A DNA stretch of 64,000 nucleotides from Spirochaetia bacterium (GTDB taxonomy: Bacteria; Spirochaetota; Spirochaetia; UBA9216): assembly GCA_963677925.2 (NCBI GenBank), contig CAXXYH010000004.1:256001-320000 (forward strand). Direction: 5' to 3'. A model generated the notes under the pieces. That model did no database searches. It was given only the letters and a program-made list of their open reading frames with translations, and was not told where the DNA came from. Positions within the stretch are counted from its first letter, which is position 1. Each line of letters opens with the position of its first letter. The translations under genes and the position numbers were made by a program. Below are positions 14,789-18,756 of this stretch, piece after piece.

Positions 14789-14817
14789 TTGACATTATAT
14801 AGAACTTATTATATATT
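14789..14817 (+). promoter_or_regulatory. Sigma70-type promoter for the MarR cluster
   Basis: TTGACA (14789-14794), 17 nt spacer, TATATT (14812-14817). Confidence 0.7.
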
Positions 14818-14824
14818 ACTTAAA

Positions 14825-14850
14825 GCAAATGTTGCTAAGCGCAAATATTT
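14825..14850. promoter_or_regulatory. Candidate MarR operator
   Basis: GCAA-atg-TTGC-taagc-GCAA overlapping inverted repeats (TTGC 14832-14835 / GCAA 14841-14844) just downstream of the -10 box. Confidence 0.45.
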
Positions 14851-14864
14851 CATTATAATTACTA

Positions 14865-15272
14865 TTGGAGAGCATTTTGATCGACCAGATACTTGAGTTG
14901 AAAAAAAAGTGTAATTTCGACCGCGAAATAGGAGAGGCTTTAAACCTTAAGGATAAGGAAATCTCTGCCATCGCCGCCATTGCTGAATGCAGTGAACTTA
15001 CATCAAAAGAAGTATCAGATCAGATATCACTGTCACCCTCAAGAGGAAGCAGGGTGATAACCGGCCTTATGGAAAAGGGCCTTGTTGAACTAAACCACAA
15101 CAGTGACGACAGAAGGGTTATCAATATCACACTTACCCGGGCCGGAGAAGCATGCTACTTAAATATGGTGGAAGAAATAAAAAAATGCGAACGGCGCCTT
15201 ACAGAGAATCTTACTGAACAGGAAAAACTGATTATTTCAGAAGGCCTGCAGATATTACTTAAAACTATATAG
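14865..15272 (+). CDS. MarR family transcriptional regulator
   Basis: LSPSRGSRVITGLMEKGLV...DDRRVINITLTRAG winged-helix motif; four Cys. The start may be TTG 14877 (GGAG at 14867-14870). Confidence 0.9.
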   Translation: MESILIDQILELKKKCNFDREIGEALNLKDKEISAIAAIAECSELTSKEVSDQISLSPSRGSRVITGLMEKGLVELNHNSDDRRVINITLTRAGEACYLNMVEEIKKCERRLTENLTEQEKLIISEGLQILLKTI

Positions 15273-15280
15273 GAGAGAAG

Positions 15281-15943
15281 ATGGCTGAGACAAAAACTTC
15301 AAACGCAATAAATATAAGGTATTCCGATCTGGCGGAAACAAGCTGCTGCCTTTCATGCGGCGGTGCCGTAAACCACAGCAAGGCTAAAACCGGTGAGGTA
15401 TGTGTAGACCTTGGAAGCGGAAGAGGTACCGACGTCCTCAGGCTTGCGGAAGATGTAGGGGAAACAGGGTTTGTATACGGCATCGATCTTTCAGACGGAA
15501 TGATCCGAAAGGCTGAAAAAACCGCAGAAAGGCTCGGTGTTAAAAACGTAAAATTTGAGCAGGCGGATCTTGAAGCTCTACCGGTTGAAGATTCTACAGT
15601 GAATCTGGTTATCTCAAACTGTGTAATAAATCATGCTGAAAACAAGCAGAATGTATGGAACGAAGTTTACAGAATTCTGAAAAAGGGCGGACGCTTTGTT
15701 GTAAGCGATATCTATTCGAGTGCACCAGTTCCTGAAGAATACAAGAATGATCCTGAAGCAGTTGCTGAGTGCTGGGCGGGTTCTGTAACCCGGGAAGTAT
15801 ACCTGAATCAGCTGGCAGCAGCAGGATTTAAGGATGTAGAGATTCTTGAAGAAAGCAATCCCTACCCCAAGGGCAAAATCGAAGTTAGCAGCTGGACCAT
15901 CCTGGGCAAAAAACCGGGTGGCTGCAGCTGTAACAATATTTAA
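15281..15943 (+). CDS. ArsM-like (arsenite methyltransferase family) SAM-dependent methyltransferase
   Basis: CCLSCG, VDLGSGRG, YGIDLS, LVISNCVIN, RILKKGGRFVVSD, AECWAGS and a C-terminal CSC. The Cys positions match ArsM motifs. AGGAG RBS. Confidence 0.82.
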   Translation: MAETKTSNAINIRYSDLAETSCCLSCGGAVNHSKAKTGEVCVDLGSGRGTDVLRLAEDVGETGFVYGIDLSDGMIRKAEKTAERLGVKNVKFEQADLEALPVEDSTVNLVISNCVINHAENKQNVWNEVYRILKKGGRFVVSDIYSSAPVPEEYKNDPEAVAECWAGSVTREVYLNQLAAAGFKDVEILEESNPYPKGKIEVSSWTILGKKPGGCSCNNI

Positions 15944-15954
15944 AGGAGTGGTAG

Positions 15955-16050
15955 ATGAAATCACTTATCAAGAAGAAACCGGAAGGCAAAAAAGAAGTAG
16001 CTCAGTGCTGCGCTAAGCTTTCCAAAGTTGTGGCCGGCTGCCACGATTAA
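15955..16050 (+). CDS. 31-aa Cys-containing peptide, putative RiPP precursor (MKSLIKKKPEGKKEVAQCCAKLSKVVAGCHD)
   Basis: AGGAG at 15944-15948, ATG at 15955, TAA at 16048-16050. Lys-rich N-half and CC...C C-half. Sits between the methyltransferase and the rSAM/SPASM gene and is followed by a stem-loop. Below the ORF-track length cutoff. Confidence 0.85.
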   Translation: MKSLIKKKPEGKKEVAQCCAKLSKVVAGCHD

Positions 16051-16057
16051 TCCTTTA

Positions 16058-16088
16058 CCGGAACGGAGGGTTTAATCCTCCGTTCCGG
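16058..16088 (+). terminator. Intra-operon stem-loop after the peptide gene (mRNA stabiliser or partial terminator)
   Basis: Perfect 12-bp stem ccggaacggagg / cctccgttccgg with a 7-nt loop. The T-run starts about 14 nt later rather than immediately. Confidence 0.75.
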
Positions 16089-16113
16089 ATCCTAACAGGG
16101 GCTTTTTTAATTT

Positions 16114-17436
16114 ATGGAATATACATTATCTAAACATAATATTATCGGGAAACTTGCGGACTCTGAAAACTGGTACATAGTAAATCCTTTAAGCAGAAAC
16201 GCCGACATAATTACTTCAGAAACTGCGGATACTTTGACCAATGGATCCTACACCAATGCAGATGAACTTCTGGAAAAGGGATATATCGTTGACGCGGCAG
16301 CAGAAGATAAGACATTCAAGGCTGAATACCTGAGTTTTATCGACAACCGTGAAACTGATGAAATTCAGATTTTTTATGTGCCGACCTACGCGTGCAATTT
16401 TGCATGTTCATACTGCTATCAGGAAGGTTATTCCCATGATAAGAATGAAAAGCCGCTGGAAGTAATCGACGCATTTTTCAGCTACATCGATAAGGAATTC
16501 GCCGGACGTAGAAAGTACATAACTGTTTTCGGCGGCGAACCGATGCTGCCGGACCCGCTGACCCGGGAAAAAATCGGTCATATAATCAAGAATGCCAATG
16601 ACAGAAATCTGTCTCTTGCATTTGTAACCAACGGCTATACGCTTGAATCCTACGTTCCAATGCTGCAGATGGCAAGCATACGGGAAGTACAGGTTACCCT
16701 TGACGGACCGGCTGAAGTGCATGATAAGCGCAGAATGCTAAGAGGCGGTAAGGGCACTTTCAGTGAAATTGCCGACGGAATAAATGCAGCGCTTAGAGCA
16801 GACATTCCTATAAACCTGAGGGCGGTAATAGACAGGGATAATCTTCCATCACTGCCGGCACTTGCAGAGTTTGCAGTATCACAGGGCTGGACTAATAACA
16901 AACTTTTTAAAACACAGCTTGGCCGAAATTATGAACTGCACTACTGCCAGGCTGATGAGAACAGGCTTTACGACAGACTGACGATGTATGCAGATCTGTA
17001 TGAGCTTATAAAGAAAAATCCGGTGATAATGCAGTTTCACCGTCCGGCATATTCGATTTCAAGATTTCTGTTTGACAACGGAGAGATGCCTGAACCGCTG
17101 TTTGACTCATGTCCGGGCTGTAAAACCGAGTGGGCCTTTGACTACACCGGTAACATTTATTCCTGCACAGCCACAGTAGGAAAGAGCGGTGAAGAACTTG
17201 GAACTTTTTATCCTTCAGTTACAAGGAAGGAAGAAATAATTGAAGAATGGCAGGAGCGCGATGTTACAGCAATAAGTGAATGCGCCGACTGTTCACTCAA
17301 GCTGGCATGCGGCGGAGGCTGTGCTTCCGTAGCAAAGAACAAATCCGGCAGGATTTGCTCCCCGGACTGCCGACCGGTAGACGGACTTTTATCATACGGA
17401 CTTTCACTTTACTTCGGAGAGGAAGCGGAAGCCTAA
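16114..17436 (+). CDS. Radical SAM / SPASM domain peptide maturase
   Basis: CNFACSYC (CxxxCxxC), FGGEP, TNG, QVTLDG..VHDKRR; SPASM C..GNIYSC and CADCSLKLACGGGC...C; ~80-aa N-terminal extension of RRE-like character. Confidence 0.92.
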   Translation: MEYTLSKHNIIGKLADSENWYIVNPLSRNADIITSETADTLTNGSYTNADELLEKGYIVDAAAEDKTFKAEYLSFIDNRETDEIQIFYVPTYACNFACSYCYQEGYSHDKNEKPLEVIDAFFSYIDKEFAGRRKYITVFGGEPMLPDPLTREKIGHIIKNANDRNLSLAFVTNGYTLESYVPMLQMASIREVQVTLDGPAEVHDKRRMLRGGKGTFSEIADGINAALRADIPINLRAVIDRDNLPSLPALAEFAVSQGWTNNKLFKTQLGRNYELHYCQADENRLYDRLTMYADLYELIKKNPVIMQFHRPAYSISRFLFDNGEMPEPLFDSCPGCKTEWAFDYTGNIYSCTATVGKSGEELGTFYPSVTRKEEIIEEWQERDVTAISECADCSLKLACGGGCASVAKNKSGRICSPDCRPVDGLLSYGLSLYFGEEAEA

Positions 17437-17472
17437 ATTTGAAAATAATTAACCACACTAAAGGAGTTGGAT

Positions 17473-18756
17473 ATGGCAGGAAAAATTAAAGAGATTCAGC
17501 AGGCGGATTTTGAGAATGAAGTACTTAAGGCAGATAAGGTAGTTGTTGATTTCTACTCAACCGAGTGTCCGCCCTGCGAGGCGCTTGCAGCAAAGTATGA
17601 AAGCCTCAGCATGATATACGGGGATGATATAAAATTCATCAAGATATTCCGTCAGGGAAACAGGGAGCTGGCACAGGAACTTGATATCAGCGGTTCACCT
17701 ACAGTTATATTCTATAATAACGGAGAGAGAACCGGAGCAACACTTACTGGCGGGATAAAAAGATCTGAGCTTATGGAAAACCTTGATGCTCTTCTTTCCG
17801 CAGAAAAAGTGGAAGAAATTCATTCAAAGATTACTCCCGTGGTTACCAACGCTGATGTTGTAATCCTCGGCGGCGGTCCTGCAGGTCTTACCGCTGGAGT
17901 ATATCTGGCTCAGGCTCATCTTAAAACGATACTCGTTGATACCGCACTTCCCGGAGGATACGTAGCAACTACACACCAGGTATCCAACTACCCCGGTTTC
18001 ATTGAACCGCAGCAGGGATTCATGCTCAGCCATTATATGAGCGAACAGGCAAAGGCAAACGGTGTTGAGTTCAGAAGTGCTGTTGAAGTAACAAAGGTCG
18101 ATCTTGCAAACAAGAGTATTCTTGTTGACGGATTTGAAACAATAGAAGCCAAAAAAGTTGTAATATCTACAGGCTCAAGACCAAGACCACTGGGAATCCC
18201 GGGCGAGAAGGAATACGCAGGTCAGGGAATCAGCTACTGTGCAACATGTGACGGAAAATACTTCGAAGGCAAAGAGATTGTCGTTATCGGCGGCGGAAAC
18301 TCAGCGATTGAGGAATCGCTCTTCCTCTCAAAATTCGCAAGTAAAATAACCATTGTTCACCAGTTCGATACTCTGCAGGCTAACAAGGAAGCTCAGCAGA
18401 AGATCTTTGATGACCCTAAGGTAAACATCATGTTTGAACATGAGCCGAGAGAGTTCAAGAAATACGGCAACATGGACATGGCTGTAGTAGTTGAGGATCT
18501 TAAAACCGGTGAAAAGAAAGAGGTCAAGACCAACGGTATATTCGTATTCGTAGGTTTTATACCAAATCTTGAAAGCTTCCATGACAAACTTGAGACAGAT
18601 CAGTGGGGATACCTGAAGACCAACGAAAACATGGAAACCAACATTCCCGGCGTTTTTGCAGTAGGCGATGTTAAAACAAAGGCATACCGCCAGATTACAA
18701 CAGCTGTTTCTGACGGAACAATTGCCGCAATTACAATATCAAAAGAACTTTCCTGA
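17473..18756 (+). CDS. Thioredoxin (CPPC) - thioredoxin reductase fusion
   Basis: N-domain VVVDFYSTECPPC...GSPT; C-domain GGGPAGLTAG, NYPG, ISYCATCDG, GGGNSA, PGVFAVGD, RQITTAVSDG. AAGGAG RBS before ATG 17473. Confidence 0.92.
   Translation: MAGKIKEIQQADFENEVLKADKVVVDFYSTECPPCEALAAKYESLSMIYGDDIKFIKIFRQGNRELAQELDISGSPTVIFYNNGERTGATLTGGIKRSELMENLDALLSAEKVEEIHSKITPVVTNADVVILGGGPAGLTAGVYLAQAHLKTILVDTALPGGYVATTHQVSNYPGFIEPQQGFMLSHYMSEQAKANGVEFRSAVEVTKVDLANKSILVDGFETIEAKKVVISTGSRPRPLGIPGEKEYAGQGISYCATCDGKYFEGKEIVVIGGGNSAIEESLFLSKFASKITIVHQFDTLQANKEAQQKIFDDPKVNIMFEHEPREFKKYGNMDMAVVVEDLKTGEKKEVKTNGIFVFVGFIPNLESFHDKLETDQWGYLKTNENMETNIPGVFAVGDVKTKAYRQITTAVSDGTIAAITISKELS

Follow-up and report, generated by a model that had tools for sequence, protein, structure and literature searches.

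In a 64,000-nucleotide stretch of DNA from a Spirochaetia bacterium (assembly GCA_963677925.2, contig CAXXYH010000004.1, positions 256,001 to 320,000; hereafter the window, whose own numbering is used throughout), five co-directional open reading frames (ORFs) lie on the forward strand between positions 14865 and 18756, separated by gaps of 8, 11, 63, and 30 nt. Four of them encode a compact ArsM-like S-adenosylmethionine (SAM) methyltransferase (MT), a 31-residue peptide, a radical SAM/SPASM enzyme (rSAM), and a thioredoxin fused to a thioredoxin reductase (Trx-TrxR), and these four genes constitute a real, widespread, and mobile module. The peptide is most likely a leader-guided substrate of the radical SAM enzyme. 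An earlier reading of this DNA, made from the sequence only, had described five packed genes read in one direction, and all five were found as ORFs in the region, with the following features:

14789 to 14859, forward strand: two overlapping sigma70-like promoter matches, proposed from the consensus alone.
14865 to 15272, forward strand: MarR-family regulator of 135 residues, start codon uncertain, from a Pfam match to MarR_2.
15281 to 15943, forward strand: compact ArsM-like SAM methyltransferase of 220 residues, from its match to NF008823 and its alignment with CmArsM.
15955 to 16050, forward strand: putative precursor peptide ORF of 31 residues, from an AGGAG ribosome-binding site and conservation.
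16058 to 16088, forward strand: stem-loop (14-bp stem) immediately downstream of the peptide stop, from folding energy.
16114 to 17436, forward strand: putative radical SAM/SPASM maturase of 440 residues, from motif, homology, and fold.
17473 to 18756 (alternative TTG start at 17467), forward strand: Trx-TrxR fusion, from its CPPC and CATC motifs and homology.

The peptide ORF has its AGGAG site 6 nt before the ATG, and the product is laid out as a leader (MKSLIKKK), a Lys-rich linker, and a core, AQCCAK-x6-GCHD, that ends at the free C terminus. A profile search with the rSAM against one-genome-per-species contigs returned at least 582 relatives, and the locus counts given here refer to the best 80 of these. 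A short ORF like that of the window precedes the rSAM gene in 80/80 loci. When four sister loci were added, the exact pattern AQCC[AS]K-x6-GCHD-stop was present in 84/84, in 83 distinct DNA versions. Each invariant core residue uses all of its synonymous codons (four each for Ala16 and Gly28, both for every Cys), and the stop codon may be TAA, TAG, or TGA. Because synonymous codons and stops turn over around an invariant peptide motif, selection acts at the protein level, and it is strongly supported that the 31-residue ORF is a real gene under strong selection of this kind. A chance ORF is ruled out by the conservation in all 80 loci together with the codon turnover. The residues M1, A16, Q17, C18, C19, K21, G28, C29, H30, and D31 were invariant in 45 peptide sequences, the N terminus (M-K/R-S-L-I/V-K-K) was conserved, and the middle part was variable and basic. 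The 16-residue core is kept across Spirochaetota, Bacteroidota, Ignavibacteriota, Margulisbacteria, Latescibacterota, and one Syntrophomonadaceae genome. A search of the ESM Atlas with the peptide retrieved only clusters named 'hypothetical protein', with scores of 0.84-0.87.

The stem-loop that follows the peptide stop in the window has a folding energy of -28.0 kcal/mol (z = -5.9). Hairpins of -10 kcal/mol or stronger, dissimilar in sequence, were found in 55 of 58 peptide-rSAM intergenic regions, the set comprising the window and those 57 of the 80 loci in which the gap between peptide and rSAM is at least 57 nt. The hairpin is probably an attenuator or transcript-stabilizing element; by analogy, it would be a familiar means of producing more precursor, and here also more MT, than downstream enzymes.

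That the four genes travel together across phyla is strongly supported as well. The titles of the best 80 loci name Spirochaetia, Bacteroidales, Ignavibacteriota/Melioribacter, Margulisbacteria, Latescibacterota, and Syntrophomonadaceae. The MT gene lies upstream of the peptide in 78/80, both misses having less than 250 nt of upstream contig, and Trx-TrxR was found in 77/80 (73 downstream and 4 upstream), with two of the misses at contig ends. Within Spirochaetota the rSAM ortholog is patchily distributed, occurring in 41 of 401 genomes and 24/153 genera; cultured carriers include the harmless species Spirochaeta isovalerica and Marispirochaeta aestuarii. The order MT-peptide-rSAM-Trx-TrxR is also kept in a sister clade of Spirochaetota (loci L084-L087 in genomes G104, G006, G044, and G154), whose rSAM proteins are 37-38% identical. 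The peptides of this clade are 39 residues long, with a second CC motif upstream of a retained VAQCCSK-x6-GCHD-stop tail. In L084-L086 there is an additional DUF5714 gene, which has a relation to the model named 'metal-binding double selenoprotein MbdU', and L085 also has a DsrE2-like gene. A full-text literature search whose scope excluded most subscription papers gave nothing pertinent on DUF5714 or MbdU.

The linkage was also approached from the peptide alone by scanning metagenome contigs with the back-translated motif; this yielded at least 120 stretches, and 80 of them were retained. An rSAM homolog was present in 37 of the 41 stretches with at least 1500 nt downstream, and an MT gene on the same strand in 54 of the 62 with at least 800 nt upstream. 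A third clade of loci with a GC content of 0.68-0.74 was seen among these (L102, L116, L118, L130, L132, L138, L141, L144, L152, L155, and L163). Its peptides have an added CC and take the form ..CCAPE..AAQCCAKASRLVSGCHD, and its gene order is MT-peptide-Trx-TrxR, with the rSAM gene either encoded on the opposite strand or placed ahead of the peptide (L163, L138). The peptide ORF of L132 runs antisense into the end of an ORF that by eye resembles an anti-sigma factor.

The rSAM contains the motif CNFACSYC, with the CX3CX2C cysteines at C94, C98, and C101, and in 16 diverse sequences eight further cysteines were invariant (C278, C333, C351, C390, C393, C399, C403, and C419). These include a SPASM set of C333, C351, C390-x2-C393-x5-C399-x3-C403, and C419; in Pfam, Radical_SAM matched with 70.7 bits and Fer4_12 with 38.7 bits. 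The NCBIfam matches were led by maturases of Cys-rich peptides, and none reached its cut-off: TIGR04463 (132.1 of 525 bits), CefB NF038107 (131 of 600), PapB NF047865 (111.6 of 340), SCIFF TIGR03974 (79 of 425), and mycofactocin TIGR03962 (66 of 265). The closest solved relative by both sequence and predicted fold was CteB (5wgg; E 3e-16, TM 0.66). In the AlphaFold model, which has a mean predicted local distance difference test (pLDDT) of 80.6, residues 1-80 resemble the recognition element (RRE) in systems for ribosomally made peptides with post-translational modifications (RiPPs), with strands at 10-13, 20-24, and 29-33 and helices at 35-42, 49-55, and 61-79 (pLDDT 87-93). The PqqD model of Pfam gave no match to the rSAM at E <= 0.01.

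The complex of peptide and rSAM was then predicted using an alignment of the rSAM, three 4Fe-4S clusters, SAM, and an alignment of the peptide. The interface score ipSAE was 0.83 in three runs, as compared to 0.02 for the best of three controls; the ipSAE mark was reached by 58/80 solved complexes and 2/110 mismatched pairs in a calibration made without ligands or these alignments. The runs shared at least 48% of contacts, and the partner pLDDT was 48-49. The confident interface places peptide residues 1-8 against rSAM residues 21-33, 37, 48, 51, and 55, plus 269-271, 319-325, and 430-437, and the stretch 21-33 contains the family-invariant residues N24, L26, A30, and D31. In the predicted complex, MKSLIKKK behaves as a leader that extends the β-sheet of the RRE domain of the maturase. 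The leader of CteA sits on the RRE sheet of CteB, as described in the accessible part of PMC6231123, and the docking score may in part come from likeness to the solved CteB complex. By analogy with its relatives, the maturase likely acts on the invariant C-terminal core, at a cysteine or by way of one.

The best NCBIfam match of the MT was the arsenite methyltransferase model NF008823 (199.9 bits), covering profile positions 59-233 of 272. The protein has the motifs CCLSCG, SNCV, and ECW and a Cys-rich C-terminal tail. Alignment to CmArsM equates C26 with Cys72, C114 with Cys174, and C164 with Cys224; the pair C22-C23, three residues before C26 and outside this alignment, is a possible counterpart of Cys44. 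The five cysteines C22, C23, C26, C114, and C164 are kept in 90-94% of 71 sequences (70 MT ORFs of 190-280 residues and that of the window). Among structures, CmArsM was matched at E 6e-23 and the RiPP methyltransferases LahSB (6uak) and MccD (5fcd) at E 1e-6 to 1e-7. According to the available portion of PMC6138428, all arsenite methyltransferases have four conserved cysteines (Cys44, 72, 174, and 224 in CmArsM), of which Cys174 and Cys224 bind the arsenical and the two N-terminal ones form a disulfide by which arsenic is kept reduced; the same portion gives As(GS)3 as the preferred substrate, taken up via three thiol transfers, and thioredoxin as the suggested reductant.

Examination of 401 Spirochaetota genomes revealed a close MT copy (46-100% identical) in 38, of which 36 carry the rSAM as well; the remaining two are assemblies 85% and 92% complete. 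The MT matches were bimodal, the second class being 35-44% identical, in frames of 256-320 residues, and like ordinary ArsM. The MT of the module is therefore a dedicated paralog rather than a general ArsM, since the matches fall into two classes and the longer class coexists with the module. In G057:C75:4248-8868, the module and an ArsM-like gene of canonical length are on opposite strands some 2 kb apart, the sole side-by-side case seen. In five genomes of genus g2 (G015, G042, G065, G085, and G215) the longer paralog has a single in-frame TGA, which fits the selenocysteine form of arsenite methyltransferase described in the accessible part of PMC13188914. Public names for these proteins are generic, 'radical SAM protein' and 'methyltransferase domain-containing protein', with the MT sometimes called 'arsenite methyltransferase'.

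For the Trx-TrxR fusion, the ATG at 17473, with AAAGGAG at 17460-17466, was preferred over the TTG at 17467. The protein carries the CPPC of thioredoxin and the CATC of thioredoxin reductase, and both motifs are present in 64/64 family members (63 ORFs of 400-460 residues and the fusion of the window); DUF1847, rhodanese, and small thioredoxins were kept apart from this family by sequence reading and Pfam. Pyr_redox_2 matched with 193.5 bits and the thioredoxin reductase model TIGR01292 with 318 bits against a cut-off of 343.45. The match to AhpF was 237.2 bits, less than half of the 502.9 of that model, and covered only profile positions 115-507, corresponding to one thioredoxin fold; AhpF aligns with fusion residues 20-423, and the domain order is AhpF-like. 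The HRRDxLR stretch of thioredoxin reductases binds the 2'-phosphate of NADPH. In the fusion, HQFDxLQ (window 18355-18381, residues 297-305) stands in place of the HRRDxLR of solved enzymes, with Q299 in 60/64 and F300 in 58/64 sequences, which suggests a change of electron donor. The replacement extends across the family, and NADH or another donor is likely.

What the sequence-only reading had named in the three enzymes was thus recovered: the full SPASM cysteine set in the invariant residues of the 16 diverse sequences, the RRE-like N terminus in the three strands and three helices against which the peptide N terminus docked, the ArsM-type cysteines in the three motifs and the three residues aligned to CmArsM, and the fusion of thioredoxin and reductase in CPPC and CATC. 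Its further expectation that the short ORF and the five genes would be found together elsewhere held for the peptide beside rSAM homologs (80/80), MT (78/80), and Trx-TrxR (77/80). It did not hold for MarR, a gene of this type lying upstream of the module in only 26/80 related loci. MarR is a lineage-specific add-on outside the conserved four-gene core, and the earlier description of a cluster under MarR is true in this lineage only; in one group of Bacteroidales loci, a co-directional pair of histidine kinase genes takes its place. The MarR_2 match of the window protein was 28.8 bits, above the Pfam cut-off of 27, and that to MarR PF01047 was 22.7 bits, below 24.6.

By comparison to the consensus, the two promoter matches are TTGACA-17-TATATT at 14789-14817 (11/12) and TTGCTA-16-TATAAT at 14832-14859 (10/12). 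The first is a site of the kind proposed previously as a single sigma70 promoter, but such sites are not in excess (11 in the region versus 8.2 +/- 2.8 in shuffles), and a promoter upstream of MarR is plausible. The genes that flank the cluster on both sides are on the reverse strand and unrelated to it, encoding a PocR-sensor histidine kinase, an APH-type kinase, a transaldolase, an SDR protein, a GntR regulator, and an MFS transporter.

We then examined the neighborhoods of the related loci using 135 ORFs of 80-700 residues, comprising the nearest on each side of the core and any intercalated, after two clusters of antisense artefacts were dropped. The commonest Pfam families were MarR (16), DUF1847 (15), thioredoxin (15), histidine kinase (12), YceI (9), DUF302 (5), and AhpC/TSA (4). 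No exporter or leader protease was among the 25 most frequent families, and inside the five-gene cluster itself there was no protease, exporter, arsR, arsC, or acr3, as had been noted before. The neighbors point to thiol or sulfur redox rather than arsenic, and for this reason a metalloid reading of the module is given only moderate weight. DsrE2-like, rhodanese-like, SQR-like, and YeeE/YedE-like genes each occur in single loci. A Cys-rich DUF1847 gene (Pfam E 1.6e-36) often follows Trx-TrxR, in loci including L005, L006, L008, L014-L016, L021, L022, L028, L034, L049, L057, L069, and L080; no paper on DUF1847 was found in a search of full-text literature whose scope excluded most subscription papers. 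The genome of the window has a sole, unlinked DUF1847 copy at G000:C3:1736948-1737373 (locus L088:1438-1983), which overlaps the stop of an ORF that looks like an M3 oligoendopeptidase. In several Bacteroidales loci (L027, L052, L054, L057, L072, and L075), a thioredoxin with what looks like a signal peptide at its N terminus stands between MT and peptide. Near these insertions in Bacteroidales are thioredoxins that look membrane-anchored and rhodanese-like ORFs, both judged by eye, and DUF302 and DUF6132 genes identified by Pfam.

The above considerations led us to propose a mechanism in which the CteB-like maturase would modify the core AQCCAK-x6-GCHD, a Cys-centered thioether cross-link being the most likely product. 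The product would be neither cleaved nor exported, and would serve as a small, thiol-bearing partner of the MT inside the cell. That it stays intracellular, as the sequence-only reading also had it, is likely and fits the absence of a conserved protease or exporter. The MT would methylate a soft, lone-pair element held on thiols, and this is probable because the metalloid-binding and redox cysteines of ArsM are kept; the element could be As(III) or Sb(III), or else a chalcogen carried as a per(seleno)sulfide, for example Se, Te, or sulfane sulfur. Each turnover would leave a disulfide, to be reduced again by the dedicated AhpF-like Trx-TrxR. The peptide, with its three thiols, would act as carrier or donor, in the role that As(GS)3 plays for ArsM, where glutathione appears to be lacking. 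A need for another thiol carrier fits the genome of the window, in which glutathione synthetase GshB scored 73 of 299 bits and no GshF was above its cut-off. There, SelD was likewise not found above its cut-off (23.6 of 125 bits), making a selenophosphate-dependent role unlikely in this organism, with selenium detoxification still compatible. Taken whole, a self-contained, horizontally spread module in which a peptide partners an ArsM-type enzyme acting on a thiol-bound soft element is the best explanation we can offer, and we put its chance of being right a little short of even.

Several observations weigh against this proposal. The score of the MT lies below the curated ArsM cut-off (199.9 versus 263 bits), and a longer ArsM-like paralog coexists with the module in nine genomes, which speaks against an arsenic-specific role. 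Neither ArsR, Acr3, ArsB, nor ArsC was among the 25 most frequent families of the 135 neighbors, and the matches in the genome of the window to the ArsB family and to ArsC (ArsC-like, 161.7 versus 174.3) lie on other contigs; no Acr3 and no ArsM was above its cut-off anywhere in that genome. We consider the Acr3, ArsB, ArsC, and ArsM results from this genome neutral as to an arsenic operon context. A metalloid would find no free thiol on the peptide were all three cysteines converted to thioethers. Of the core, residue 31 alone had a confident placement in the complex model. With eight extra invariant cysteines, both auxiliary clusters of the maturase may be fully ligated, and an open site of the CteB type for a substrate cysteine cannot be inferred for that reason.

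The four-gene pattern also has exceptions. The Bacteroidales locus L079 has MT, peptide, and rSAM genes with no Trx-TrxR within 6 kb on either side, and a YceI gene directly after the rSAM gene. In five high-GC contigs, the peptide stands without a partner gene within the 0.1-2 kb present on each side. In L110 and L159, genes other than that of the rSAM come after the MT-peptide pair; L159 extends only about 1.3 kb past the peptide, which makes the lack of an rSAM a weak negative there. In L093 the same pair is followed by 1.6 kb with no rSAM match or convincing ORF. As the three loci retain the pair without rSAM, MT and peptide are the tightest link of the module. The genes that follow the pair include a DUF1847 gene in L110:7572-13367, assigned by likeness to Pfam-scanned copies, together with ORFs that by eye are TsaA/YaeB-like, a second methyltransferase, a multihaem cytochrome, and YeeE/YedE-like, and in L159:12474-14624 what appears by eye to be an SQR-like flavoprotein. 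The sequence-only reading had the pathway yield either a methylated thioether peptide or a peptide scaffold for As(III) or another soft metalloid. Its RiPP-type unit is borne out by the peptide conserved beside the rSAM in all 80 loci, the co-occurrence of the genes, and the leader predicted on the RRE; its arsenic-specific side is weakened by the lack of ars families among the 25 most frequent near the module and by the separate ArsM-like paralog in nine genomes.

The same genes could instead make an ordinary tailored RiPP, an antibiotic or signal, in which the MT methylates the cross-linked peptide itself on S, N, or O (at a cysteine, Lys21, His30, or the C-terminal Asp carboxylate), Trx-TrxR merely keeps the cysteines reduced, and unlinked housekeeping genes cleave and export the product. 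A leader, an RRE, an rSAM/SPASM enzyme, and a hairpin after the precursor are standard RiPP design, the best NCBIfam matches of the maturase (TIGR04463, CefB, PapB, and SCIFF) act on Cys-rich peptides, and LahSB and MccD are weak matches of the MT. The MT nonetheless matches ArsM structures far better (6e-23 versus 1e-6 to 1e-7), and the ArsM cysteine set, kept at 90-94%, would be needless in a peptide O- or N-methyltransferase. The core is invariant over at least five named phylum-level groups, unlike those of antibiotic RiPPs, a dedicated reductase is kept in 77/80 loci, and neither an exporter nor a leader protease is conserved, so that we regard such a product as unlikely. The MT could also belong to a plain arsenic-resistance operon that happens to have an unrelated rSAM gene for a neighbor, the short ORF being a product of chance. 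Some sources do name the MT 'arsenite methyltransferase', and ArsM is known to need thioredoxin, at least from the available portion of PMC6138428. Yet the short ORF is present with synonymous codon turnover in 80/80 loci, its linkage survives rearrangement and persists in clades at 37-40% identity, its binding to the rSAM is predicted (0.83 versus 0.02), no ars genes are linked, and nine module-bearing genomes have the longer ArsM-like paralog besides; this we find hardly credible.

Maturation in the manner of mycofactocin or pyrroloquinoline quinone (PQQ) offers a further explanation, in which the peptide gives rise to a redox cofactor or low-molecular-weight dithiol recycled by Trx-TrxR. 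This could be a small molecule with redox activity or the cross-linked peptide left intact, used by anaerobes in defense against thiol, peroxide, or sulfide stress. The cofactor precursors MftA and PqqA have an invariant end at a conserved C terminus, and the invariant core here lies at a fixed free C terminus, with GCHD-stop in 84/84 loci. The reductase has an AhpF-like domain order and lacks the NADPH motif, thiol-redox families are well represented among the 135 neighbors (thioredoxin 15, DUF1847 15, DUF302 5, and AhpC/TSA 4), DsrE2-, rhodanese-, SQR-, and YeeE/YedE-like genes appear in single loci, and a MarR regulator is present. Such a cofactor would leave the metalloid-binding Cys pair of ArsM in the MT unexplained, and no oxidoreductase that might use it is conserved nearby, and we think it rather improbable. 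The proposal of a peptide partner for a methyltransferase of soft elements also has a more far-reaching form, in which the three thiols of the rSAM-shaped peptide hold As(III), Sb, Se, or Te for methylation in place by the ArsM-like enzyme, the peptide serving as template; in the boldest version, the carbon radical of the maturase would bond the metalloid to the peptide. We consider this peptide-templated chemistry distinctly unlikely. If true, it would be the first RiPP to carry a metalloid, or a ribosomal metallochaperone that serves an ArsM exclusively, and would amount to glutathione-independent metalloid methylation in anoxic, sulfidic habitats.

Each part of the module has known relatives. 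The CteB/SCIFF enzymes, PapB, CefB, and TIGR04463 have in common with the maturase the order N-terminal RRE, radical SAM core, and SPASM, and in the CteB/SCIFF type a short Cys-containing substrate is likewise encoded next door, its leader lying on the RRE sheet as is predicted here. CteB lacks the cysteine of GRNYELHxC, Cys278, which is an extra invariant of the present maturase. Kinship to the thioether-forming sactipeptide and ranthipeptide enzymes is suggested by homology. In contrast to those systems, the core described here is invariant phylum-wide at a fixed C terminus, and an ArsM-like enzyme and a Trx-TrxR are obligatory partners. For the MT, ArsM/AS3MT (CmArsM 4fr0, 4kw7) is the best match in both family and structure, with three Cys equivalents in common, and the need of ArsM for a thioredoxin system is mirrored in the linked Trx-TrxR. 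Unlike ArsM, the present MT has only 220 residues, with neither the C-terminal domain nor a spacer separating its first two Cys sites, and forms a separate, rSAM-tied subfamily at 46-83% identity; in none of the loci examined does it have ars genes beside it.

The fusion has in common with AhpF and other Trx-TrxR fusions an N-terminal CxxC thioredoxin fold and a low-Mr thioredoxin reductase with CATC, and has the look of a reductase with a single partner; it has one thioredoxin fold where AhpF has two, and AhpC is not linked to it as a rule (4/135 neighbors). Mycofactocin (MftA/B/C) and PQQ (PqqA/D/E) likewise start from a short precursor with an invariant C-terminal end and an RRE-guided rSAM/SPASM enzyme. 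Maturation in both is guided by the RRE, and the product is used inside the cell. They differ from the present system in their partner enzymes and in having Val-Tyr or Glu-Tyr where Cys, His, and Asp are found here. As(GS)3 and the metallochaperone ArsD present three thiols for transfer of As(III), the site in ArsD being Cys12-Cys13-Cys18, and by analogy the CC and C of the peptide could do likewise. There is no sequence relation to either, and the putative carrier described here is ribosomal and radical SAM-dependent. Crp of Methanococcus voltae is a different system, judging from the accessible part of PMC13692751.

As the sequence-only reading had failed to recognize this combination as a described family, we looked for it among curated families and in the literature. 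No NCBIfam model names the peptide or the rSAM, and no cut-off of a curated NCBIfam model was reached. In the full-text literature, most subscription papers and supplements being outside the scope, there was no description of the gene set or the peptide motif. A bioinformatic atlas of rSAM RiPP clusters could already list the family. To our knowledge, a peptide-modifying rSAM/SPASM enzyme, an ArsM-type methyltransferase, and a private AhpF-like reductase are not known to work together, and there is a modest chance that their chemistry is categorically new.

The conservation of the core over phyla looks like that of a piece of conserved cell chemistry and not of a typical variable antibiotic. 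The system is abundant, with the rSAM in at least 582 species-level genomes and the peptide motif on at least 120 metagenome contigs. Its study could reveal a novel post-translational modification, a novel thiol cofactor or carrier in anaerobes that lack glutathione, or a new route for methylation of arsenic, antimony, selenium, or sulfur in anoxic sediments. Such a methylation route, if true, would bear on the counts of 'arsM' genes in environmental surveys. Since the system is small, with four genes and a substrate of 31 residues, and is present in cultured species, these possibilities are directly testable.

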